Positions 1,186 to 61,847 of a stretch of 64,000 bases of DNA are shown here, in pieces. How positions within the stretch are numbered: position 1 is the stretch's first letter; each line of letters opens with the position of its first letter. The notes below the pieces were generated by a model. It was not told where the DNA came from, did not search any database, and saw nothing but the letters and a program-made list of their open reading frames with translations. The position numbers were made by a program, and so were the translations under genes. This DNA comes from Patescibacteria group bacterium (lineage in GTDB: Bacteria > Patescibacteriota > Minisyncoccia > Phycocordibacterales > DATDWN01), in NCBI GenBank assembly GCA_040389125.1, contig JAZKAN010000002.1:1232-65231 (forward strand), written 5' to 3'.

Positions 1186-1563
1186 ATGATACAGCCACAA
1201 TCAATCGTCAAAATATGCGACAACACAGGAGCCAAAATTGGGCGAGTGTTCAAGGTGCTCGGTAGTTCTAAAAAGCGATACGCATCGATCGGCGAACTCG
1301 TTGTGCTCTCTGTTCAAAAGGCAGAACCACGAAAAGGTACAAAGAAAAAAGACGTTGTGTATGCTCTTGTTGTACGACAACGAGCTCCATTTCGCCGAAA
1401 GGATGGATCATACATTCGATTTGATGAAAATGCAGTTGTAATTGTGAGTAAGGATCCAAAGAAAAAGGAGCCGGTTGCTGCACGTGTGTTCGGACCCATC
1501 CCACGAGAAATCGGTGAAGTGGGATACCAAAAGATAATTTCATTGGCACCAGAAGTCGTATAA
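1186..1563 (+). CDS. rplN: 50S ribosomal protein L14
   Basis: 125 aa starting MIQPQSIVKICDNTGAK, the hallmark L14 N-terminus. Confidence 0.97.
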   Translation: MIQPQSIVKICDNTGAKIGRVFKVLGSSKKRYASIGELVVLSVQKAEPRKGTKKKDVVYALVVRQRAPFRRKDGSYIRFDENAVVIVSKDPKKKEPVAARVFGPIPREIGEVGYQKIISLAPEVV

Positions 1564-1584
1564 TACTCCTTTAATTTTACATAT

Positions 1585-1830
1585 ATGAAAATCAAAAAAG
1601 ACGACAAGGTAATAGTAATCGCAGGCAAGGACAAGGGTAAATCTGGTTCTGTGGTCAAAGCGATGCCAAAGGAAAACAAAGTAGTTGTTTCTGGTGTAAA
1701 CATACTCAAGGTTCACAAGAAAGCTCGCAAGGGTGGTGAAAAGGGTCAGATCATCGACAAGACAATGCCAATTCACGTTTCAAACGTAAAGCTTGCAGAG
1801 AAAAAAGCCAAAGCAAAGAAAACAAAGTAA
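1585..1830 (+). CDS. rplX: 50S ribosomal protein L24
   Basis: 81 aa starting MKIKKDDKVIVIAGKDKGK (KOW motif). It follows rplN. Confidence 0.9.
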   Translation: MKIKKDDKVIVIAGKDKGKSGSVVKAMPKENKVVVSGVNILKVHKKARKGGEKGQIIDKTMPIHVSNVKLAEKKAKAKKTK

Positions 1831-1851
1831 TTTTAAACAACTAAAACTGCC

Positions 1852-2454
1852 ATGGAAACAACAAAAGACAAAGTAGCATCTGCGTTCACAGCCCTCAAGG
1901 GTGAGTTTGGATACAAGAACAAAATGCAGGCACCAAAGATTGTGAAATTGGTGGTTTCTTCTGGTGTGGGATCAATCAAAGATAAAAAGAAAATTGAACT
2001 CGTGATCGACCGTCTCGCTCGCATCACTGGTCAGAAACCAGTCAAGAAAGGCGCAAAGCAATCTGTGGCAGCGTTTAAGGTGCGAGAAGGGGACACAGTA
2101 GGAACACAGATCACTCTTCGAGGTGCGCGCATGTACGATTTTATTGACCGACTCATTCACATCGCTCTCCCTCGAACAAAGGACTTCCGTGGTATTTCTG
2201 CAAACGGCATTGATGAAATGGGTAACTACACAGTCGGCATCCGCGAGCACTCTATTTTCCCTGAAACAGGCGATGAGGAACTCAAAGATATTTTCGGTCT
2301 CGCTATCACTGTCGTCACAAACGTAAAGAATCCAAAAGAAACTCGTGCATTTTTGACTCACCTCGGATTTCCATTCAAGAAAGTAGAAACAAAGGAGGCA
2401 AAAGTTGCAAAGGTTATAGAAACCAAAGGCAAAGCAAAATTCGGTAAAAAATAG
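1852..2454 (+). CDS. rplE: 50S ribosomal protein L5
   Basis: 200 aa with YKNKMQAPKIVKLVVSSGVG and GISANGIDEMGNYTVGIREHSIFPE, which are conserved L5 blocks. Confidence 0.97.
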   Translation: METTKDKVASAFTALKGEFGYKNKMQAPKIVKLVVSSGVGSIKDKKKIELVIDRLARITGQKPVKKGAKQSVAAFKVREGDTVGTQITLRGARMYDFIDRLIHIALPRTKDFRGISANGIDEMGNYTVGIREHSIFPETGDEELKDIFGLAITVVTNVKNPKETRAFLTHLGFPFKKVETKEAKVAKVIETKGKAKFGKK

Positions 2455-2481
2455 AACTTTCAATTTTCAAAATCTCAAATC

Positions 2482-2510
2482 AAAACACCCCACTCGGGGT
2501 GTTTTGATTT
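2482..2510 (+). terminator. Intrinsic terminator directly after rplE
   Basis: Stem AACACCCC (2484-2491), loop ACTC, stem GGGGTGTT (2496-2503), followed by TTGATTT. Confidence 0.75.
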
Positions 2511-2562
2511 ACTTGTATTTTCTTGAAAAGTATGGTTTTATATTGTAGGAGGCTGTAAAGAG

Positions 2563-2958
2563 ATGACGGCGGATACAATCATATTGATTTGTTGGATAGG
2601 CCTTGGCTTGTCCGTGCTTTGCTTGATTCGAGGGTGGCAACTCAGACTCCGTGCTCGACGTAGAGAGCTCGTGCAGAAAGTCACTCTGTACATGAAAGGT
2701 GGAGCATCGGCAAACACCTACCACAAAATCATTATTCGAGTGGTTGCAGGTCGTCAAGTGGTGGCTATCTGCTATGACAAAGGTCGCGAAATAGTCGTCG
2801 CTAAGGTGACTGTGGGGAATTGGACTGTTCAAACCGAGTCCATTCCCAATGAACTCAATCTCTATTCCGACATTAGCGAGGGGGAAGAAATCCTGGAATG
2901 GCTGAATCAAATTGCAGGATATTTGCGCACCTATAACATACCACTTGTGGCGGCGTGA
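2563..2958 (+). CDS. Hypothetical membrane-anchored protein (orphan cassette 1 inside the r-protein operon)
   Basis: 131-aa ORF with an AGGAGG Shine-Dalgarno site upstream. The N-terminus has a hydrophobic helix (IILICWIGLGLSVLCLI). It has its own terminator and is visibly GC-richer than its neighbours. Confidence 0.6.
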   Translation: MTADTIILICWIGLGLSVLCLIRGWQLRLRARRRELVQKVTLYMKGGASANTYHKIIIRVVAGRQVVAICYDKGREIVVAKVTVGNWTVQTESIPNELNLYSDISEGEEILEWLNQIAGYLRTYNIPLVAA

Positions 2959-2977
2959 AATGCCACCACCAAATCAA

Positions 2978-3009
2978 GCCGGCGTACCCACATGGGTCCG
3001 CCGGCTTTT
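2978..3009 (+). terminator. Intrinsic terminator of cassette 1
   Basis: GCCGGCG (2978-2984) pairs with CGCCGGC (2999-3005), followed by TTTT. The tail GCCGGCTTTTCACATGC recurs at 4237-4253. Confidence 0.7.
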
Positions 3010-3069
3010 CACATGCTCAAAACTTGTTTTAAATATGAGAGTATGTTTCCATTATATGAGGAGGGAGAT

Positions 3070-3477
3070 ATGCATAGGCTAACGCTCAGCATGGCCAGTT
3101 TCATCAGTGGGGAATTGGTAAAGGATCTTTGGAGGATGACGGACGGTAGCAATACCTGCTTTAGCTATCTCGACCGCGGGCATTTTGAGGCAGGGGTGGA
3201 GATATGTGAATTTTTTGTTGACATTGGGAGTATGAAAAAAAGACTTGAGTCTACTGGACCTCAATCTCACCCTTGCTCAAGGTTCAATTTTTCCCTGGAG
3301 CTGAGTGAGTCAGCACGAGCAAAGCCAAATGGAATGCTTGTGTTGGGCGTGTTGCAGAGTATGTCCAAACCCACTCAATGCCTTTTGTCTCGTTTGCTAA
3401 ACGGGAGAAATCTGCGTGAGCATCATCTGCAAGCGATAGAAGATTTCTTTTTTGAATTACATCGGCTCCTAGCATGA
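3070..3477 (+). CDS. Hypothetical protein (orphan cassette 2)
   Basis: In-frame ATG at 3070 preceded by GAGGAGGGAG. The track ORF start at 2992 would overlap the previous terminator hairpin. 135 aa with no recognisable motif. Confidence 0.5.
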   Translation: MHRLTLSMASFISGELVKDLWRMTDGSNTCFSYLDRGHFEAGVEICEFFVDIGSMKKRLESTGPQSHPCSRFNFSLELSESARAKPNGMLVLGVLQSMSKPTQCLLSRLLNGRNLREHHLQAIEDFFFELHRLLA

Positions 3478-3494
3478 CTTGTATCCGTTCACCA

Positions 3495-3527
3495 GCTGGC
3501 GTACCCTATCTCGGTCCGCCAGCTTTT
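3495..3527 (+). terminator. Intrinsic terminator of cassette 2
   Basis: GCTGGCG (3495-3501) pairs with CGCCAGC (3517-3523), followed by TTTT. It is homologous in layout and sequence to the terminators at 2978 and 4215. Confidence 0.65.
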
Positions 3528-3583
3528 CGTGTCTACACCATATAAATTTAAATTAAGCTCTCAACCCAGCCTTTTTCTACCCC

Positions 3584-3612
3584 TTGCATTTTATTCTTAT
3601 GTGTGATATAAT
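3584..3612 (+). promoter_or_regulatory. Sigma70-like promoter of cassette 3
   Basis: TTGCAT (3584-3589), 17-nt spacer, TATAAT (3607-3612). Confidence 0.5.
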
Positions 3613-3693
3613 ACAGGAGAAAGCTGAAGTGGGGCAGCTATAGACTCCATTCGCCGTCGGGCGTTAAATAGATCATTGATAAGGTGGTAGAAA

Positions 3694-4194
3694 ATGTTTG
3701 AAACGAATCAGACCCTCACAATTCAGTGGCCAGCACCCCTGGTCATTGTAGCGTCCCTCGCGTTTGCAATTCTGATAGTTGGTGGAGGTGCATGGTACCT
3801 TCATTGGCGAATCAAGGTAGTTATCGAGAAAGCTCTGAGCAAAGGAAAGGGTCTAAGTCATAAAGACGCTCAGCTCCAGACTACTCGCTACAATCTTGCT
3901 GGGCAGATTAAAAATACTCTGGCAACAACTGCAAAAGATCACCCAGTAAGTGATTTCATTCATGTGGAAAACTTATCGGATCGAGCAGAACTTTGCAGGT
4001 ATGTTGTGACAGCTTTCTATGTAAAAAGAAGCGTTGAATTGATTGTCCAAGTGACTGTGATGAAAGACTCGATTACTGCTCAAACTGCTTCTGGTCCGCA
4101 CAGTAGTCTGGGGTGCAGGGCTGATAGCGGAGACATGCTACTTTTTTTGGAAGGAATAAAAGATGAGGTCAGGGAGTTTAGGCCTAAATCCTAA
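3694..4194 (+). CDS. Hypothetical membrane-anchored protein (orphan cassette 3)
   Basis: 166-aa ORF with AAGGTGG 7 nt upstream. It has an N-terminal TM helix (LVIVASLAFAILIVGGGAWYL) and the same overall layout as cassette 1. Confidence 0.6.
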   Translation: MFETNQTLTIQWPAPLVIVASLAFAILIVGGGAWYLHWRIKVVIEKALSKGKGLSHKDAQLQTTRYNLAGQIKNTLATTAKDHPVSDFIHVENLSDRAELCRYVVTAFYVKRSVELIVQVTVMKDSITAQTASGPHSSLGCRADSGDMLLFLEGIKDEVREFRPKS

Positions 4195-4214
4195 ACACTT
4201 GAATCATCATACTA

Positions 4215-4246
4215 GCCGGTGCGTCCTTCGGGACGCGCCGGCTTTT
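4215..4246 (+). terminator. Intrinsic terminator of cassette 3
   Basis: GCCGGTGCGTCC, loop TTCG, GGACGCGCCGGC, followed by TTTT. Confidence 0.75.
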
Positions 4247-4273
4247 CACATGCAAAAAATTACGTACCCACTA

Positions 4274-4443
4274 GCATTACAGAAGCATGAGCATTTTTGG
4301 AGACCCCGCAGGCCTGAAGCATGGTTCTGTCAACGACCCGCCTTTTAGGGGCGGGCTCATTGACAGATTCAGGTCGAGGAAATGCTGAAAGTCCCGCAGG
4401 GGACTTGAAGGAATCTCCAAAAATGCTCATGCTTCTGTAATGC
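4274..4443 (+). repeat. Nested-palindrome repeat, family A, copy 1
   Basis: A 30-nt outer arm GCATTACAGAAGCATGAGCATTTTTGGAGA (4274-4303) is exactly complementary to 4414-4443. The inner core CCGCAGGCCTGAAGCATGGTTCTGTCAACGAC..CTCATTGACAGATTCAGGTCGAGG is shared with 41795-41951 and 43798-43984. Confidence 0.7.
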
Positions 4444-4454
4444 GAACTCTTAGT

Positions 4455-4483
4455 TTGACTCCCACACGGTAATCTGATAGTAT
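4455..4483 (+). promoter_or_regulatory. Sigma70-like promoter that restarts the r-protein operon at rpsN
   Basis: TTGACT (4455-4460), 17-nt spacer, TAGTAT (4478-4483), about 30 nt upstream of rpsN. Confidence 0.5.
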
Positions 4484-4514
4484 GACCCCAGCTTGTAAAA
4501 GCTAATTTTATTTC

Positions 4515-4700
4515 ATGGCAAAAACATCAGTAAAAGCACGAGCAGCTAAAACCCCGAAATTCGGGACACGAGCGGTAAACCGTTGCTTTCGATGTAGTCG
4601 AAAACACGGATTCATGCGTGATTTCGGTCTCTGCAGAATCTGTTTTCGAGAGTTAGCAAACGAGGGAAAAATCCCTGGAATAAAAAAGTCCTCATGGTAG
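4515..4700 (+). CDS. rpsN: 30S ribosomal protein S14, short zinc-ribbon (type Z) form
   Basis: 61 aa with CFRCSRKHGFMRDFGLCRICFRE (CxxC...CxxC) and a C-terminal KSSW. Confidence 0.93.
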   Translation: MAKTSVKARAAKTPKFGTRAVNRCFRCSRKHGFMRDFGLCRICFRELANEGKIPGIKKSSW

Positions 4701-4777
4701 AGGCGCAAAACTAGTTGTCTCGGTAAGTCAGAGAATCTCTTCTCTCGATACTACCCAGATATAATACACAACACACA

Positions 4778-6089: not shown

Positions 6090-6683
6090 ATGGATACAGA
6101 AATTAAAAAAACAGAAGGTGATGTGGTAAGTGCAGGAGCACCTGATTCTCGCGATAATGCGCAGGGTGGTAGTCAAGGTTCATCGCGTGAATTTCGAAAG
6201 AATACTCGCAAGGCACCTCCACGCCGTGAGGCTCGCGTCAAGCCTGAATTCGATCAGAAGATCGTCAGCATTCGCCGCGTGACTCGAGTGGTAACAGGAG
6301 GCCGACGATTCAGTTTCTCTGTTGGTATTGTGATTGGTGACCGCAAGGGTCGCGTCGGTGTGGGACAAGGCAAGGCAGGAGACACTCCGATCGCTATCGA
6401 CAAGGCTGTTCGTGATGCTCGCAAAAACATGATCACTGTCCCTATGACCAAAAATGGTTCGATTCCACACGAAGTTGACGCAAAGTTCTCGAGCTCTCGA
6501 GTACACATCATGCGTGCACCAGGCAAGGGTATTCTCGCTGGATCGTCTGTTCGAACAGTACTTGAATTCGCTGGCGTAAAAGAAGTCAGTGCAAAAATCT
6601 TTTCTCGAAGCAAGAACAAAGTAAACAATGCCAAAGCAGCAGTAAAGGCTCTCGCAACACTCAAGTTGCCAAAGAATAAATAA
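6090..6683 (+). CDS. rpsE: 30S ribosomal protein S5
   Basis: ATG at 6090. The protein contains RRVTRVVTGGRRFSFSVGIVIGDRKGRVGVGQGKA, the S5 dsRBD signature. Confidence 0.95.
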   Translation: MDTEIKKTEGDVVSAGAPDSRDNAQGGSQGSSREFRKNTRKAPPRREARVKPEFDQKIVSIRRVTRVVTGGRRFSFSVGIVIGDRKGRVGVGQGKAGDTPIAIDKAVRDARKNMITVPMTKNGSIPHEVDAKFSSSRVHIMRAPGKGILAGSSVRTVLEFAGVKEVSAKIFSRSKNKVNNAKAAVKALATLKLPKNK

Positions 6684-6690
6684 AAATACC

Positions 6691-7131
6691 ATGCAAACTC
6701 ATAATCTAAAGCGAACACACGCAAATAAAAAAGCACGACAAGTAGGTCGTGGGGGAACTCGTGGAAAAACAGCAGGACGTGGAACAAAAGGACAGAACGC
6801 GCGTGCGGGTCACAAGAAACGACCAGAAATCCGAGATTTCATCAAACGTCTTCCTAAACTTCGTGGACGAGGTAAAAATATCAACACAAGTATTCAAACA
6901 AAACCAGTTGTTGTGAATTTAAAGGACCTCAAAAAATGTAAAGATGGAGATACTGTATCTCCTCGAACACTCGTAAAACATGGTATAGTGAGTAAGGTCG
7001 CTGGTGACCTTCCTCGAATCAAAATCCTGGGCAGTGGTACAGTTGAGGTGAAACTGACTGTAAAAGACTGCGAAGTCTCAGCTAGTGCAAAGGAGGCAAT
7101 CGAGAAAGCTGGAGGGACGGTTGTTCTTTAA
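6691..7131 (+). CDS. rplO: 50S ribosomal protein L15
   Basis: 146 aa with KKARQVGRGGTRGKTAGRGTKGQNARAG. It starts 7 nt after the rpsE stop, so no rpmD lies between them. Confidence 0.95.
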   Translation: MQTHNLKRTHANKKARQVGRGGTRGKTAGRGTKGQNARAGHKKRPEIRDFIKRLPKLRGRGKNINTSIQTKPVVVNLKDLKKCKDGDTVSPRTLVKHGIVSKVAGDLPRIKILGSGTVEVKLTVKDCEVSASAKEAIEKAGGTVVL

Positions 7132-7250
7132 AATCTCATTCTCCTCATGGCTTTTTAAAACACGGAGTCGCTCGGGGCACTCGCGCTCCTCGCTCTCGGG
7201 CCGTCGCCCCGCGTACGGTTTTAAAAAGTCATGAGTCAACGAGATTTTAA
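7128..7250 (+). repeat. Nested-palindrome repeat, family B, copy 1 (overlaps the rplO stop codon)
   Basis: 7132-7246 matches 25592-25706 at 111 of 115 positions by hand alignment. Ends are AATCTC...GAGATT, the stem is CTCATGRCTTTTTAAAAC, and the core is GC-rich. Confidence 0.75.
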
Positions 7251-7300
7251 AGAATACTCGCCTCTGCGCCGGGGTGGTAAAAGAAAATTCAAAAAATACA

Positions 7301-11199: not shown

Positions 11200-11805
11200 A
11201 TGCAACACCCCAAGAAAGAACGATCACTGACCATCATAAAGCCGGACGGAATTCAACGGACACTTGTTGCGGAAATTATTGGACGATATGAAAGGATGGG
11301 GCTCAAACTTATTGGAATCAAAATGTGTGTGCCAACAGAGGAGCAGATTGTAAAACACTACACACTTGACCCCGAGTGGCGCCGGATAACAGGCGAAAAG
11401 AGAATTAATGCTGCAAGGGAAAAAGGGGAGACTCCGCCTTCAACTGACCCACTTGAAATCACTCGGATCGTTTTGGAAAAATTAAAAAAATACATGACAT
11501 CTGGTCCGGTGATCGCTATGGTCTGGGAGGGTGCGCACGTGGTGGAAATCATACGCAAACTGACAGGTAGTACCGAACCTCGTATGTCTGATGTTGGTAC
11601 GATCCGTGGCGATTATGTTCTTGACTCATATCTGATGTCTGACGCAGACGGCCGTTCGATACGCAACCTCGTCCATGCATCCGGCTCGGCAAAGGAAGCC
11701 GAAGCAGAAATCGCTCACTGGTTTCGAGCTGACGAACTCATGGATTACACACTCATCGCCGAGAAAATTCTGTACGATGTGAATCTGGATGGGATTGGGG
11801 AGTAG
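11200..11805 (+). CDS. ndk: Nucleoside diphosphate kinase (long form)
   Basis: ERSLTIIKPDGIQR at the N-terminus and NLVHASGS, which carries the active-site His. It is about 60 aa longer than typical Ndk. Confidence 0.9.
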   Translation: MQHPKKERSLTIIKPDGIQRTLVAEIIGRYERMGLKLIGIKMCVPTEEQIVKHYTLDPEWRRITGEKRINAAREKGETPPSTDPLEITRIVLEKLKKYMTSGPVIAMVWEGAHVVEIIRKLTGSTEPRMSDVGTIRGDYVLDSYLMSDADGRSIRNLVHASGSAKEAEAEIAHWFRADELMDYTLIAEKILYDVNLDGIGE

Positions 11806-11825
11806 AGAGAATCGTAAATTTTATA

Positions 11826-11867
11826 ATAAAAAACCGCGTGGTGCCCAGATAGGCGCATCACGCGGTT
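11826..11867 (-). terminator. Intrinsic terminator for the minus-strand GC-rich operon
   Basis: On the minus strand, AACCGCGTG pairs with CACGCGGTT and is followed by TTTTTATTATAA. Confidence 0.6.
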
Positions 11868-11887
11868 GGATGATCAGACGATCAAAT

Positions 11888-12040
11888 CTACTTCTCTTCA
11901 TCGGGGAAGTTCACATATGCGTGATATCTCCCTCCTGTTTGGGCGCAGTTCATGCACGGGCACATTGCCCGAGCCTTCGTCTCTGTGGTACCTTCGACGT
12001 TTTCTTCGACGGTATTGTCTTTTTTTTCGATCTCGTTCAT
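11888..12040 (-). CDS. Putative 50-aa cysteine-containing peptide (not in the ORF track, below 60 aa)
   Basis: Minus-strand ATG at 12040 preceded by GGAGAAAAAG. Translation is MNEIEKKDNTVEENVEGTTETKARAMCPCMNCAQTGGRYHAYVNFPDEEK. The terminator follows directly. Confidence 0.4.
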   Translation of the reverse strand: MNEIEKKDNTVEENVEGTTETKARAMCPCMNCAQTGGRYHAYVNFPDEEK

Positions 12041-12179
12041 CTTTTTCTCCAAGGAACTTCAACTCGATTTTGGATCGTACTAATCAAGTTGTCTTTAGAA
12101 ACAACAAAATTTACATTTGCATTCTCTAAAGATTGGGAGGGTGGGGCTTGCGAGCCTAACACCGCTCCCGAAAGGACAA

Positions 12180-12713
12180 TTACTTGCTGATTTGCGCCAC
12201 TAGGTGGCGGTATGCGACTGCCGCGACGGCCGAGTCATAGAGGGGGTTGTGAGTTCCGCCCTCGAACTTGCCGACGGACAACCCGTGCTTTTTCACGTAG
12301 CTGTCGACCGACGTCGGGTCTTCACCTGCTTGCTGCAGATTCCCCGATACGTCGAGCATCGGGTAAGGACCGTCCCAGTCGCCGATGACACCCTGGGCGT
12401 GCATGTCGCGGAGCAACCCTGCCTCCACGATGTACCCCATGTGCACGAGAATGTCCGCGTCGGCTTTGTTCGCGAGATAAAACTTCGCGAAGTCAGCAAG
12501 CAATCCCTTGTACGTGTCGTGCGTTACCGGCACACCAGCAAGGGTGGGGAGGACATTCTCCTTTACCCACTGTTCGGTCACTGCCGAGTCTGGCAAGCGA
12601 CCGATAAAGCGGGCGATCTCAGTGCCTTGCTCGTCGTAGACGAGCGCACCGATTGCGAAAGCCTTGCCCCAGAGACCGTTGGTCTCTGCGTCGAACGAAA
12701 ACATCTTTTTCAT
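12180..12713 (-). CDS. DEDDh-type 3'-5' exonuclease (DnaQ/RNase T-like fold)
   Basis: FSFDAETNGL is an Exo I (DxE) motif and GGTHNPLYDSAVAA is an Exo III (Hx4D) motif. ATG 12713 is preceded by GGAGACGGAGA. The gene is strongly GC-rich relative to the window. Confidence 0.8.
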   Translation of the reverse strand: MKKMFSFDAETNGLWGKAFAIGALVYDEQGTEIARFIGRLPDSAVTEQWVKENVLPTLAGVPVTHDTYKGLLADFAKFYLANKADADILVHMGYIVEAGLLRDMHAQGVIGDWDGPYPMLDVSGNLQQAGEDPTSVDSYVKKHGLSVGKFEGGTHNPLYDSAVAAVAYRHLVAQISK

Positions 12714-12990
12714 TTTTTCTCCGTCTCCTAGTCGGAATAATATCAACATTTATTTTGTAGATATTAACATTCTTCCGGCCATGAAACATTTGAAACTTTT
12801 TCGTCCTTTCGGACTCATCAGTCAGGCTTTTCCATTTCTGGACATCCTGAGAAAGTTGGAGCGTCACATACGTAATCGCCCCATGTGGAACGATAGTTGG
12901 ATCGTTCCACCATTTCACTTCTTCCGCCAACTCGGAATGTATAACATGACATTTCTTTATGAGTCGTAGTCATTGACGACTTCGCCGATG

Positions 12991-13662
12991 TTACTTGGGT
13001 TGCTGATCTGCGATGATCGCCTGCAACTCCTCGTCTGTCATTTGGCTCGGACTAGCCGAGACCCATTTGACAAACAAATCTTCCTCCTCTTTAATCACTA
13101 GTACTAACAAGTAATTTTTTTTCTTCCGATATATTCGCCTTTGTTCTTGCCACGGCTTGCCAATTGGTCGCGGCTCGTAGGGGTGATACGCTTGGTTTGC
13201 TTTCCACTTTCCCTCCAAAATGAGAGGGAGGGTTAGGTGCTCATTCAGAAGAGATTGCTTTTCCTCCGCCTGAACGACACCATTAAGCTCTCGGAGCTCA
13301 TCTAATTTTCGATGATAGTCTGAGTTTGCGTCCCCAAGTTGATTGAGCAGTTTTCTGCTCCTCAATGTCCATTCGGCAGATTCCAGGCTTGGATTTCTTT
13401 CATGGTTTTCCCGTTCTTCCATGATTTCATCCCTTTTTTCTTTGAGTCTATCAACCTCATTTTTGAGGGTTTTATATTTCCCCTCAAAAACAATTCCAAA
13501 CCATTCGGTTTGAAATTTTGGTCGCGGAACTGTATCTGACGGCTGAGTCGGGGCAAAGCTGTTTTCTTTAATCACGACCGGAGTGGCGGTCACCACCCCT
13601 TTTACCTCGTTGGTGGCATTGCTGCCACCAAAAAAATTCTTGAAAAAATTCCAAATTGTCAT
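12991..13662 (-). CDS. Hypothetical coiled-coil protein
   Basis: 223-aa ORF with a GAGGAG Shine-Dalgarno site 6 nt upstream. The central part has charged heptad-like stretches (NEVDRLKEKRDEIMEERENHERN). Confidence 0.6.
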   Translation of the reverse strand: MTIWNFFKNFFGGSNATNEVKGVVTATPVVIKENSFAPTQPSDTVPRPKFQTEWFGIVFEGKYKTLKNEVDRLKEKRDEIMEERENHERNPSLESAEWTLRSRKLLNQLGDANSDYHRKLDELRELNGVVQAEEKQSLLNEHLTLPLILEGKWKANQAYHPYEPRPIGKPWQEQRRIYRKKKNYLLVLVIKEEEDLFVKWVSASPSQMTDEELQAIIADQQPK

Positions 13663-25091: not shown

Positions 25092-25192
25092 TGAGAAACT
25101 CAAATATAGCAAAAAGGAAGGCTATCGAAACGATAATCTTCCTTGTGCTGTAAGGCTATTTGAGGAATTTGTTACCTCAAATACTCTAGATG

Positions 25193-25578
25193 TGGAGATG
25201 GCGACATCGAAGTCGCATGCATAGAGAGAATTGAAGCGGGTCTACAGCGCGTAGTTTGTTTTAGTGTTTTAAATCATACTGCTCGGAACAAACAAAATAC
25301 AGTATGATCGAGTCATCTTTTTTTCGAAACATACTCGAGACTAAATATGTTTCTAACCTGCGTTTTATATCAATCAACTTCCCGTAGCGGGTGTGAGGGA
25401 AGCGACCGTCGTTTAGGCGTTAGCGTAAGCGAAGGAGAAATCATTTACAGTGAAGTAAGGAGATTTAACCTTTGTAACTAAGTTGTTTACACTTAAGTTT
25501 TTCGTGCTGTTTTAGGAGGACACGATACTCCGCGTTGCGCGAATCAATTGGCAAACTATGTCAAAACCTGTCATCCCC
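25193..25578 (-). ncRNA. ssrA: tmRNA (SsrA)
   Basis: The minus-strand 5' end is GGGGATGACAGGTTTTGACA. The 3' end is GCGAC-TTCGAT-GTCGC, then CATCTCC, then A. This gives a 7-bp acceptor stem with a G3:U70 pair. The in-frame tag candidate ends NDFSFAYANA then TAA. smpB is adjacent. Confidence 0.85.
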
Positions 25579-25586
25579 GATGTTAA

Positions 25587-25710
25587 TATACAATCTCTTT
25601 CTCCTCATGACTTTTTAAAACACGGAGTCGCTCGGGGCACTCGCGCTCCTCGCTCTCGGGCCGTCGCCCTGTGTACGGTTTTAAAAAGTCATGAGTCAAC
25701 GAGATTGTAT
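25587..25710 (+). repeat. Nested-palindrome repeat, family B, copy 2
   Basis: 25592-25706 matches 7132-7246 at 111 of 115 positions. It lies between the ssrA 5' end and the smpB stop. Confidence 0.75.
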
Positions 25711-28869: not shown

Positions 28870-28942
28870 GCGCGTGTAGCTCAGTTGGTAGAGCGTTCGT
28901 CTTATACACGAATGGCCGGGGGTCCGAATCCCTCCACGCGCA
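28870..28942 (+). tRNA. tRNA-Ile, anticodon UAU
   Basis: Hand-folded cloverleaf. Acceptor GCGCGTG/CACGCGC, D arm GCTC-AGTTGGTA-GAGC, anticodon arm TTCGT-CTTATAC-ACGAA (TAT at 28913-28915), T arm GGGGG-TCCGAAT-CCCTC. No encoded CCA. Confidence 0.8.
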
Positions 28943-29103
28943 CAAAAAATTATATTTACAATGAAAAGAGAAGACAAAATTTTGATAATATCGATCGGTG
29001 TTCTAATTCTTGTATACATCCTTATACAATTTGTCCGTGTGAACTGGAACTGGTATCAAAATGAAAAGGCGATGAGGGCTGAATCCTCATTACAAATTTT
29101 TTC

Positions 29104-39598: not shown

Positions 39599-39638
39599 GA
39601 ATTTAAATTAGTATATTAAATTATATCTTGTTCATATG

Positions 39639-39725
39639 CGGAGGATGTGAGATTTGAACTCACGGTCCAGTTTCCCGGACGGCGGTTTAGTAAACCGCTG
39701 GTTTAAACCACTCACCCAATCCTCC
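39639..39725 (-). tRNA. Class II tRNA (Ser-like: long variable arm, G73) with apparent anticodon ACU
   Basis: Acceptor GGAGGAT/ATCCTCC. Anticodon arm GCGGT-TTACTAA-ACCGC. Variable arm GTCCGG-GAAA-CTGGAC. T arm GTGAG-TTCAAAT-CTCAC. Discriminator G. Confidence 0.75.
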
Positions 39726-41794: not shown

Positions 41795-41951
41795 CCCGCC
41801 CATTAATACATTTTGAAACATCCGCAAGCCTCGAGCACGGTCCTGTCAACGACTCAAGTATTCTCTTGAGCTCATTGACAGGTCGAGGCTGAGGACCGAA
41901 CGAACTTTTCGCCGGAAAAGTGAGTGTTTTCAAAATGTATTAATGGGTGGG
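41795..41951 (+). repeat. Nested-palindrome repeat, family A, copy 2
   Basis: The outer arm CCCGCCCATTAATACATTTTGAAACA pairs with 41925-41951. The core is CCGCAAGCCTCGAGCACGGTCCTGTCAACGAC..CTCATTGACAGGTCGAGG, with a second hairpin CTTTTCGCCGGAAAAG. Confidence 0.7.
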
Positions 41952-43797: not shown

Positions 43798-43984
43798 GAA
43801 AACTTTTCAAACTCCTCTCCCCAAACCCGTTTCAGAGACGCTCGCTTTTCCTGCGAAAAGCTCTCTCGGTCCTCGACCTGAATCCGTCAATGAGCCCAAG
43901 TATTCTCTTGGGTCGTTGACGGAACCATGCTTCAGGTCTGCGGATGCTCTGAAACCGGTTCGGGTCGACGAGCTTGAAAAGTTT
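43798..43984 (-). repeat. Nested-palindrome repeat, family A, copy 3 (inverted orientation)
   Basis: The reverse complement carries CCGCAGACCTGAAGCATGGTTCCGTCAACGAC..CTCATTGACGGATTCAGGTCGAGG and CTTTTCGCAGGAAAAG. It begins at the base after the pilM stop codon. Confidence 0.7.
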
Positions 43985-44515: not shown

Positions 44516-44733
44516 TGAATAAATCCAGAATAATATAATTTTGGAAACTCCGGAAACGATTAGGAAACAACGACGAATGAAGAGGAGTCCGAAGCACTGT
44601 TTGAGCACAGGTACTCCTGGCGAGTTTGCGAGAGGACTCTGGAATGAGGACGATTGTTTCCTTGATCGTTGAGGTAGAGGAAAAAGTCACCAGACTTTTA
44701 TCCGTTTTTCAAAATTATATTATTCTGGATTCA
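44516..44733 (+). repeat. Nested-palindrome repeat, family C, copy 1
   Basis: The outer arm AATCCAGAATAATATAATTTTG pairs with CAAAATTATATTATTCTGGATT. The core CCGAAGCACTGTTTGAGCACAGGTACTCCTGGCGAGTTTGCGAGAGG is shared, in reverse complement, with 58384-58594. Confidence 0.7.
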
Positions 44734-44827
44734 TGAACCACTTTGTCCACAGCTCCCACTGTGTTTTTTATTTCCATATTCTTGTATACTTACTCTAGTA
44801 TTTGTGCGCGAATTCACACACTAACTC

Positions 44828-54816: not shown

Positions 54817-58381
<3,565 letters not shown>

Positions 58382-58383
58382 GT

Positions 58384-58594
58384 AAAGGAAATAAATATAT
58401 TTTCAGAGCACGCATAAAATTGTACTCAATTTTTGCTCTCGCTCAGAGATCAAGAAAATAATACACTCAATGCGTAGCCCTCTCGCAAACTCGCCAGGAT
58501 TACCTGTGCTCAAACAGTGCTTCGGGCTTACTTCATTTTCGCTGTTATTTTCTAATCTCTTCCGCAGTCTCAAAAAATTATATTTATTTTCTTT
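58384..58594 (-). repeat. Nested-palindrome repeat, family C, copy 2 (inverted)
   Basis: The reverse complement carries CCGAAGCACTGTTTGAGCACAGGTAATCCTGGCGAGTTTGCGAGAGG plus homologous arms. It starts 3 nt after the ligA stop. Confidence 0.7.
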
Positions 58595-58626
58595 ACTTTT
58601 GCTCATTTTCCAAAAAATGCTATTGT

Positions 58627-61432: not shown

Positions 61433-61776
61433 TTGCGGGACCAGGACTTGCACCTGGGTCTGAAGGTTATGCTTTCCACTATAGTTTTCACTACTTCCAA
61501 ATTTCAAAAATTTGTAATTTGTGGTCTGGACTATACCATTTCCTTTTTCAAACGAGTTTGAAGGTAAGGAATTCACCATCTAGTCTCTACACATTTATCA
61601 GTTGATTTTAGTCATCTGAATTTAGCTCGGAATTGTCTTTCTCTACTATACTATAGTAAAGAGAGGATTTCTCCGAATTTGGCGAATGCAATCCTAAAAA
61701 TTTCTTTTTAGGTGGCCCATACAGGATGCAAGATCCAATACTTGAGCCTTCCGAGATACTGCTTCTCTATCCCGCT
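61433..61776 (-). tRNA. Initiator-like tRNA(CAU) interrupted by a 273-nt group I intron in the anticodon loop
   Basis: The 5' exon (61776-61745) is AGCGGGA-TA-GAGA-AGCAGTA-TCTC-G-GAAGG-CT. The 3' exon (61471-61433) is CATAA-CCTTC-AGAC-CCAGG-TGCAAGT-CCTGG-TCCCGCA-A. The spliced loop is CTCATAA. Features are A11:U24 and a 1:72 mismatch. Confidence 0.75.
61472..61744 (-). mobile_element. Group I self-splicing intron (IC3/Azoarcus-like core)
   Basis: The minus strand contains GTGTAGAGACTAGATGG (plus-strand 61576-61592) and CAAATTCGGAGAAATCC (61665-61681). As recalled, these closely match the Azoarcus tRNA-Ile intron core segments. U precedes the 5' splice site and G ends the intron. Confidence 0.75.
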
Positions 61777-61847
61777 ATAGGGAATCATACAGTGTTTTGG
61801 TTTATATGCAAGTTGTTTTTGTACCATAGTTGTATTAATATATACCT

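Follow-up and report, generated by a model that had tools for sequence, protein, structure and literature searches.

Why the ribosomal protein genes rplE and rpsN, which are adjacent in the textbook gene order, are held apart by three small orphan genes is the question raised by a 64,000-nt stretch of a Patescibacteria group bacterium genome (contig JAZKAN010000002.1, positions 1,232 to 65,231; hereafter the window, in whose numbering all coordinates are given). The S10-spc cluster is a classic case of frozen gene order and serves as a backbone of phylogenies and binning checks for uncultured bacteria, and in model bacteria spc is a single operon (rplN...rplE-rpsN-rpsH...). In the window, the conserved left flank rplE (1852–2454; uL5; Pfam Ribosomal_L5 and Ribosomal_L5_C, E = 1e-17 and 1e-29), whose product is 72–81% identical to L5 of the closest relatives, and the conserved right flank rpsN (4515–4700; the 61-aa zinc-ribbon form of uS14; Pfam Ribosomal_S14, E = 6.5e-23) are separated by 2,060 nt (2455–4514). 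This gap contains three open reading frames (ORFs), each with a Shine-Dalgarno (SD) sequence and a GC-rich hairpin of related type; a 170-nt palindromic element comes after them. All are given here on the + strand like the flanking genes. The junction is not a binning chimera, because window positions 1218–4606 are matched with 100% identity by a Logan assembly made independently from run SRR26324622. A first-pass annotation had interpreted the gap as a foreign or mobile array of cassettes that was inserted recently and forced the operon to be re-promoted. We instead favor, with a probability of roughly 70%, the reading that the rplE/rpsN junction is an ancestral operon boundary at which genes turn over throughout the lineage, and that this hotspot has grown to three modules in the window.

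The adjacency of rplE and rpsN, which the insertion idea took for granted as conserved, does not hold in this lineage. With the window L5 as the query, 80 loci each were gathered from species-representative genomes and from metagenomes (best L5 identity 81%), labelled as Parcubacteria, Paceibacterota, Minisyncoccia, Zambryski- and Taylorbacteria. A junction was regarded as occupied when the rplE-rpsN gap was at least 300 nt and, after duplicate removal, 62 of 117 non-redundant junctions were interrupted in this way. Occupied junctions comprised 21 of the 28 with an L5 identity of at least 72% (median 749 nt, maximum 1,347 nt), 17 of 32 at 65–72%, and 24 of 57 below 65%, where gaps reach 5 kb. 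Comparison with the related spc operons showed that the junction in the 21 occupied loci among the 28 closest holds 0.5–1.3 kb of other small genes, and the window array, with three modules and the 170-nt repeat, is the largest of the clade. In a rough neighbor-joining tree of L5, S14, and S8, the junction is 20 nt long in the sister clade and 56–63 nt, with a promoter only, in the basal loci L020 and L087; the window branches after these two, and the empty slots of L005, L013, and L016 are nested among occupied ones. No paper describing the rplE-rpsN junction as variable was found in the Patescibacteria literature.

The relatives also share the framework that surrounds the gap, which we refer to as the slot. 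At its left edge, rplE is followed by an intrinsic terminator (2477–2510), a two-way hairpin with A and T tracts that has a 15-pair stem (free energy, dG, about −19 to −21 kcal/mol) and a T-rich tail. Orthologous rplE terminators occur in the relatives, including the empty slots of L003, L005, L013, and L016 (the sequence is TCAAAACCCCACATTTGTGGGGTTTTGA in L003 and TCAAAACACCCCACTCGGGGTGTTTTGA in the window). At the right edge, the rpsN promoter TTGACT-17-TAGTAT (4455–4483) was identified by a consensus scan and by its conservation in the clade. It matches the consensus at 9 of 12 positions, and the scan returned 14 sites when 14.2 were expected, which is no better than chance; the promoter is considered real because it is conserved in the relatives and not because of its scan score. 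The form found in the clade, TTGACTTT-N-TTGCTAGTAT (TTGACTTT-N-TAGTAT), typically lies 60–63 nt before the ATG and is also present in empty slots. Downstream of the promoter is a leader hairpin, AGCTT-GTAA-AAGCT followed by a T-rich run (4490–4510), which is conserved in the clade with covariation in the stem (clade form CCCAGCTT-GNAA-AAGCT and a T run) and could be an attenuator or an autoregulatory binding site for a ribosomal protein. The terminator and promoter are only a few bases apart in relatives with an empty slot, and elsewhere the cargo sits exactly between both, while L020, L024, and L087 have the promoter but no terminator at the junction.

Since the terminator, promoter, and leader hairpin are also present in the empty-slot relatives L003, L005, L013, and L016, the split of the operon predates the array. 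The proposal that an insertion forced re-promotion of rpsN is therefore contradicted and has cause and effect reversed, the framework being older than its cargo. Judged by these sequence signals, rplE and rpsN are not adjacent and co-transcribed in the manner of the classical spc operon, either in the window or in the clade, because a terminator lies 3' of rplE and rpsN has a conserved promoter. A further GATATAAT box is apparent shortly 5' of the rpsH start codon (window ~4740–4777) and is identical in L014 (~6390–6415); given this apparent box, rpsN may be a single-gene transcription unit in the clade. Separately, a small palindromic element, AACTTYCAAATTTGGAAGTT, sometimes bounding 40–140 nt, recurs at slot edges in the relatives, namely just after rplE in L001, L004, and L011 and in the rpsN 5' untranslated region in L012, L015, L019, and L021. 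The window has merely a half-site-like version of it directly after the rplE stop codon (2458–2475).

The hairpins that close the three modules begin within ~20 nt of the ORF stop and have TTTTC tails. T1 (2976–3015, hairpin 2976–3007) consists of a slot-specific AGCCGGC hairpin and a TTTTCACATG tail (dG −24 kcal/mol), T2 (3494–3533, hairpin 3494–3524) of an AGCTGGC hairpin and a TTTTCGTGTC tail (dG −16 kcal/mol), and T3 (4214–4252, hairpin 4214–4243) of an AGCCGGT hairpin with one G·U pair and again a TTTTCACATG tail (dG −25 kcal/mol). The claim that the three terminators are homologous was borne out, as the degenerate 17-nt stem-plus-tail pattern CGCCRGCTTTTCRYRTS has three matches in 64 kb, all within the gap, compared to 0.17 expected, and T1 and T3 are identical at 22 of 24 nt in the stem end and tail. 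T2 differs from T1 by a compensatory C>T/G>A pair that keeps the stem, and an alignment of T1–T3 identified the motif ACTTGNATC in the sequence 5' of the hairpins. The G·U pair in T3 would fit a structure acting in RNA. The rplE hairpin and T1–T3 each have the sequence signals of an intrinsic terminator, a stable GC-rich stem-loop and then a U-tract, and T1–T3 resemble known intrinsic terminators in the GC-rich stem directly after the stop, the run of four to five T, and the compensatory changes that maintain the stem. In contrast to plain terminators, for which this would be unusual, the AGCCGGC/GCCGGCT stem is conserved across 73–100% L5 identity and is confined to the slot. A search of 1.43 Mb (the window and 161 related loci) for the AGCYGRC..GYCRGCT hairpin returned 10 sites, all in rplE/rpsN slots, which represent 6% of this sequence. 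These are T1 and T2 in the window (T3 being the G·U variant), L008/L084, L014 (twice), L019/L086, L031, and L085. T1 and the hairpin of the L014 F1 module (F1 being one of the slot gene families discussed below) are identical at ~23 of 29 positions by manual count. The sharing of this hairpin with the slot genes of relatives indicates that the window modules are of the same module lineage, even though their ORFs are not recognizable as such. Cargo genes of the relatives end in a 12–14-bp GC hairpin with a tail (TTTCG...) that in many cases leads directly into the next −35 box. A window-wide terminator scan was discarded as evidence because it was too noisy beyond the strongest hairpins.

The layout recorded in the first-pass annotation was recovered in all its elements, including the end of rplE at 2454 before a strong terminator, the start of rpsN at 4515 behind its own TTGACT-17-TAGTAT box, the palindromic repeat (4274–4443) at the end of the array, and three ORFs of 131, 135, and 166 aa, each with an SD sequence and hairpin within at most a few bases of the positions first given. 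Module 1 (2547–2958) comprises the SD sequence AGGAGG (2547–2552) and ORF1 (2563–2958, 131 aa), and is preceded by a candidate weak promoter read from the sequence, TTGTAT-18-TTATAT (2514–2544), which resembles the post-terminator promoter of L004 (CTTGTATTTT..TATGGTATAAT) and was missed by the consensus scan. Module 2 (3058–3477), of doubtful coding status, comprises the SD sequence GAGGAGGGAG (3058–3067) and ORF2 (3070–3477, 135 aa; the NCBI annotation has 144 aa from 3043, and the longest ORF begins at 2992). Module 3 (3681–4194) comprises the SD sequence AAGGTGGT (3681–3688) and ORF3 (3694–4194, 166 aa), and its putative promoter, TTGCAT-17-(TGA)TATAAT with an extended −10 (3584–3612), matches the −35 consensus at 3 of 6 positions and hence was not listed by the scan.

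ORF1 and ORF3 do have the similar N-terminal transmembrane (TM) helix first attributed to them (hydropathy 2.3 each), located at residues 4–22 in ORF1 and 16–34 in ORF3 with a mean Kyte-Doolittle value over 19 residues of 2.32 and 2.35, respectively, while ORF2 is soluble with no hydrophobic helix on this scale. The positively charged stretch after the TM helix (RLRARRR in ORF1) implies, by the positive-inside rule, that the C-terminal 100–130 residues of both proteins would be cytoplasmic. A codon log-odds model was trained on 32 long window genes, which score 0.24 ± 0.09 compared to −0.14 ± 0.17 for shadow ORFs; ORF1 and ORF3 score 0.15 and 0.19, and for both the annotated frame is the best of six. 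The proteins are orphans, as had been claimed, since a word-indexed search of 5.8 billion proteins returned only the proteins themselves (locus tags V4473_01510 to V4473_01520). Searches of ORF1–3 against Pfam, PHROGs, PADLOC, NCBIfam, and PDB sequences yielded nothing significant, tblastn against the 161 related loci yielded nothing usable, and a phmmer search with ORF2 against 1.84 billion representatives found itself and two tandem-repeat artefacts only. An exact look-up of the window S14 protein returned no entry. A possible HEPN domain at residues 91–130 of ORF3 (Csm6/Csx1 models, E = 0.04–0.06) was rejected, as the R-x4-6-H motif is missing and the scores are far below the cut-offs.

The view of the gap as a tandem array of autonomous modules with homologous terminators is retained, but paralogy of ORF1 and ORF3 could not be demonstrated. 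No BLASTP match was found between these two, and a Smith-Waterman comparison of their C-terminal domains gave z = 2.5 (p = 0.02 against shuffles), with no significant link in the pairwise and profile comparisons of the window ORFs. ORF3 matched the slot family F1 (L008, L009, L014a, L019, and L031) weakly in a hidden Markov model (HMM) search of ~250 slot ORFs (E = 9e-4, 13 bits), through the TM helix and a 'QxT..N[IL][AG]..I.N' motif, and in hhalign (P = 0.026 over 28 columns). As the match loses significance with a profile without the TM helix (E = 0.29), ORF3 is not regarded as a firm relative of F1, and the match is taken as a hint only. We infer that ORF1 and ORF3 are real, lineage-specific accessory proteins that are membrane-anchored with their bulk in the cytoplasm, while ORF2 may be young, decaying, or non-coding. 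Our guess is that their role is dispensable and fast-evolving, such as in phage or host interaction, rather than ribosomal.

The content of the slot differs between orthologous flanks throughout the clade. Grouping by phmmer yielded at least six cargo families and several singletons, and profile-profile comparisons between the families identified no significant relationship. About half of the families are small N-terminally anchored membrane proteins or lipoproteins, and the cargo also includes a DksA/TraR zinc-finger protein and a stand-alone receiver domain. Further out, in the more distant relatives, the slot encodes an MFS transporter, an ORF6N protein, a beta-helix protein, a DKNYY protein, and others. 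With the exception of the receiver domain, cargo homologues were found in slots only, and no integrase, transposase, or other mobile-element gene was seen among the slot cargo scanned.

Closely related genome pairs point to recent gain, loss, and exchange of whole modules. L014 and L085 are ~99.5% identical in rplE, rpsN, and rpsH and differ in the slot, between the rplE terminator and TTTCG|TTGACTTTTTTATAAT. Here L014 has a ~600-nt module (TTGACT-17-TGGTATAAT, a 180-aa membrane protein, and an AGCCGGC hairpin), and L085 has 85 nt with a different hairpin at the same position; the two module ends in L014 repeat ~35 nt. L082 exceeds L083 by one module, and the module shared by both is 85–98% identical compared to 78–92% for the flanks, with a synonymous divergence (dS) of 0.14 versus 0.91 for rplE. 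Conversely, one module is 43–64% identical between L001 and L082, and the flanks are 80–93% identical. The ratio of nonsynonymous to synonymous divergence (dN/dS) for slot genes with unsaturated dS is 0.25–0.54 compared to 0.02–0.10 for rplE in the same pairs, indicating that the slot genes of the relatives are real and fast-evolving under weak purifying selection.

In the turnover hotspot that we propose, rplE would end at its intrinsic terminator and rpsN would be transcribed from its own conserved promoter through the leader hairpin. The slot between them is filled in most members by one to three self-contained modules, each consisting of a promoter, a start signal (often an SD sequence), a small ORF, and a GC-rich hairpin whose tail often abuts the next −35 box. 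Modules may be gained, lost, duplicated, and swapped through homologous recombination, both between the repeated module ends (hairpin, tail, and −35 box) and between genomes, in which case the very conserved ribosomal genes would act as homology arms. Chromosomal turnover hotspots are sites where variable accessory genes lie between two conserved core genes. The rplE/rpsN slot resembles them in its conserved core flanks, variable content, whole units present or absent in near-identical genomes, and mosaic divergence. It differs in its location inside the ribosomal supercluster, in its tiny promoter-ORF-hairpin modules with a slot-specific hairpin, in that no integrase, transposase, or prophage gene was seen, and in cargo that is GC-richer than the host and not AT-richer. 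A study of the ribosomal supercluster in Gammaproteobacteria and Bacilli analyzed four insertions in detail, three of which were between operons, and also described the replacement of rpsN by recombination with breakpoints in the rplE-rpsN-rpsH segment (PMC8046335). The slot described here is likewise at a functional operon boundary with conserved flanks that allow exchange. However, the boundary is within spc, and about half of the sampled lineage is occupied by ever-changing orphans instead of one stable insertion, which extends the earlier observations to lineage-wide turnover of modules sharing a slot-specific hairpin.

Several points weigh against this interpretation. Modules 1 and 2 have weak or unclear promoters, and ORF2 has a codon log-odds of −0.07, which is the best of its six frames yet within the range of non-coding shadow ORFs. 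As no homologues of ORF1–3 were found in the 5.8 billion proteins searched, the conservation of and selection on these ORFs are not directly measurable. AlphaFold2 models predicted without an alignment have low confidence (mean predicted local distance difference test score, pLDDT, of 51 for ORF1, modelled as a TM helix, four strands, and a C-terminal helix, and 53 for ORF3). In addition, the proposed recombination is read from patterns in a handful of genome pairs, the low dS of the L082/L083 module could result from constraint instead, and the order of events depends on a rough three-protein neighbor-joining tree. Most of the relatives are metagenome-assembled genomes, and some of their contigs could be chimeric.

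An unlikely alternative starts from a single insertion, at the base of the clade, of one ancestral slot gene for a membrane-anchored protein, whose descendants would have diverged until they were unrecognizable and, in the window, would have been duplicated. Many slot proteins are indeed alike in layout and size (an N-terminal anchor and a 100–150-aa C-terminal part), the window modules carry the hairpin type of the F1 and F6 modules, and there are the weak ORF3-F1 and ORF1-ORF3 signals. On the other hand, the slots also contain the unrelated DksA/TraR zinc finger, receiver domain, lipoprotein, and soluble families, profile-profile comparisons between families are all non-significant, and ORF3 no longer matches F1 when the TM helix is removed. 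The differences by whole modules between near-identical genomes likewise argue against descent from one gene.

It is rather improbable that a one-off foreign or mobile array recently entered an intact spc operon, after which rpsN acquired a new promoter. Apart from the three orphan proteins and the size of the array, the largest in the clade, this idea draws on translation signals and base composition. An SD motif is present 5–10 nt upstream of all three gap ORFs, whereas among the ~62 other window ORFs of at least 100 aa only two have one (12991–13662 on the minus strand and a weak GAGG case; Fisher p = 2e-4), so the gap ORFs do have translation signals unlike those of the host. Many native window genes instead have a TATAAT box 5–8 nt before the ATG and no SD motif, which suggests that leaderless mRNAs may be widespread in this host. 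About half of Parcubacteria have been reported to lack the anti-SD motif in 16S rRNA (PMC9297842), and the near-absence of native SD motifs in the window, which does not include the 16S gene, fits this reported loss. The GC content of the gap is 0.454 compared to 0.415 for the window, and each of the 21 occupied slots in the clade is GC-richer than its flanks, by 0.04–0.18; such an excess could be derived from higher-GC donors or from GC-biased gene conversion at a recombination hotspot. As a separate observation, the region 11789–13662, which includes the SD-bearing ORF on the minus strand (12991–13662), contains several overlapping ORFs that lack Pfam matches and whose codon scores are low or ambiguous, and may be a second variable islet.

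The one-off insertion is largely refuted by the promoter, leader, and rplE terminator that are conserved in the relatives, including those with empty slots. Moreover, the hairpin module is common to the slot genes of relatives, the codon usage of ORF1 and ORF3 is near-native, and no integrase, transposase, or phage gene was identified by scanning the gap and the 30 largest of the remaining window ORFs. The latter, which lie outside the ribosomal cluster, are housekeeping, repair, or type IV pilus genes or have no Pfam match. A search of viral contigs returned no relatives of either ORF1 or ORF3. What stands of the original claim is a set of orphan tandem modules with SD signals unlike those of the host; a recent and simply foreign origin does not fit the hairpin shared with the slots of relatives or the near-native codon usage. 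The description 'recent foreign insertion' should accordingly be replaced by 'gene-turnover slot at an ancestral operon boundary, lineage-wide, with three modules here'.

Two readings would give the hairpins a direct part in module exchange. One, which we consider a long shot, is that the AGCCGGC hairpin, its tail, and the adjoining −35 box form the recombination site of a dedicated cassette-exchange platform at the rplE/rpsN boundary, where genes for small membrane proteins would be picked up and rearranged, either by a recombinase from another locus or through template switching directed by the hairpin. If true, such a platform would place its cargo beside the most highly expressed genes of the cell and would be integron-like in function with different parts. 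The other, in which the hairpins would be attC-like sites for a recombinase encoded elsewhere that shuffles cassettes at a fixed site as in an integron, is very unlikely. A complete integron has IntI beside its array, a cluster of attC sites lacking integron-integrases (CALIN) does not, and the cassettes are promoterless and expressed from a common promoter, Pc. The slot resembles integron arrays and CALINs in its tandem units of a short ORF and an imperfect palindrome, mostly of unknown function, whose number varies between strains. The hairpin is also slot-specific with a conserved stem sequence and compensatory changes, gain and loss occur exactly at module edges, and the L031 hairpin has no U-tract, so that a role beyond termination is possible. 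However, a regular-expression search of both strands of 2455–4514 found no R''/R' pair (RYYYAAC...GTTRRRY) 35–130 nt apart and hence no attC cores, and no tyrosine recombinase or other integrase was found by Pfam among the window ORFs scanned in the 64 kb (the gap ORFs and the 30 largest others). By their sequence signals, the modules appear to have their own promoters (TTGCAT-17-TATAAT in module 3, TTGACT-17-TGGTATAAT in relatives), and the hairpins are U-tailed and placed where terminators are expected, with a G·U pair in T3 that fits an RNA and not a DNA structure. The site is, in addition, fixed between two ribosomal genes.

The least credible alternative, in which the gap is a non-coding spacer or structured RNAs with frames open by chance or elevated GC, could appeal to the missing homologues, the codon score of ORF2, and the low AlphaFold2 confidence, but it fails for ORF1 and ORF3 and is possible for ORF2 only, given that a + strand ORF of at least 131 codons arose in 2% of 5000 gap shuffles and three in none, that each ORF has a well-spaced SD sequence and a hairpin just past its stop, that TM helices are clear and codon usage is frame-specific in ORF1 and ORF3, that the slot ORFs of relatives have a dN/dS below 1, and that the gap matches no Rfam family.

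The 170-nt structured repeat between T3 and the rpsN promoter (4274–4443, + strand) is a secondary insertion outside the module system. Whereas the hairpin tail leads directly into the −35 box in many relatives, this element separates T3 from the rpsN promoter in the window. It has 30-nt perfect outer arms, and its predicted fold (minimum free energy −105 kcal/mol, z = −13.9) is a long rod that contains a three-way core. Further copies are located at 41795–41951 (+) and 43800–43984 (−) in the window and at 1458–1620 (−) in L012. The outer arms differ between copies and pair within each, and the inner core is conserved in the three window copies and L012; an RNAalifold consensus has 44 pairs, 23 of them with compensatory changes. 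Neither the gap nor the element matched an Rfam family at the gathering threshold or at a permissive E-value, and a covariance model found no more copies in 1.05 Mb of related loci. Two viral contigs considered as carriers of the element were dismissed, as they share an 18-mer but do not match the profile. A miniature inverted-repeat transposable element (MITE) was likewise rejected because the terminal inverted repeats are not common to the copies and the conserved part is the inner core. In its behavior the repeat is closer to a structured RNA or DNA element than to a classical MITE, and the family could represent a structured RNA not yet described or a mobile hairpin of an unusual kind.

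Other structured elements were observed elsewhere in the window. Two of the 170-nt copies flank a comF-like phosphoribosyltransferase gene and pilM. A second family of long hairpins is represented at 7113–7265, in the rplO/secY spacer, and by a 121-nt copy of 95% identity (25589–25709) beside the tmRNA gene (25190–25578). A third pair (44519–44734 and 58380–58598) has outer arms of 24–29 nt, and the 63-nt cores of the two sites are 89% complementary to each other. A group I intron identified with Rfam (61505–61735) is located inside a tRNA gene (~61440–61795, minus strand) that was not called by ARAGORN. Its acceptor halves, GCGGGAT and GTCCCGC, and its anticodon loop, CTCAAG, indicate that it is probably a tRNA-Leu. 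ARAGORN did identify a tRNA-Ile with anticodon TAT (28870–28943) and a tRNA-Ser with anticodon ACT (39638–39725), and both anticodons are uncommon in bacteria.

For the biology of these reduced genomes, the rplE/rpsN slot means that operon structure is more fragmented than in model bacteria, and that even tiny genomes keep a place for trying out new, fast-evolving small proteins. The contrast between SD-bearing cargo and an SD-less host bears on translation start in lineages with reported loss of the anti-SD motif (PMC9297842). As a simple locus that can be aligned across genomes, the slot also lends itself to studying how orphan genes arise, are exchanged, and disappear in uncultivable organisms.

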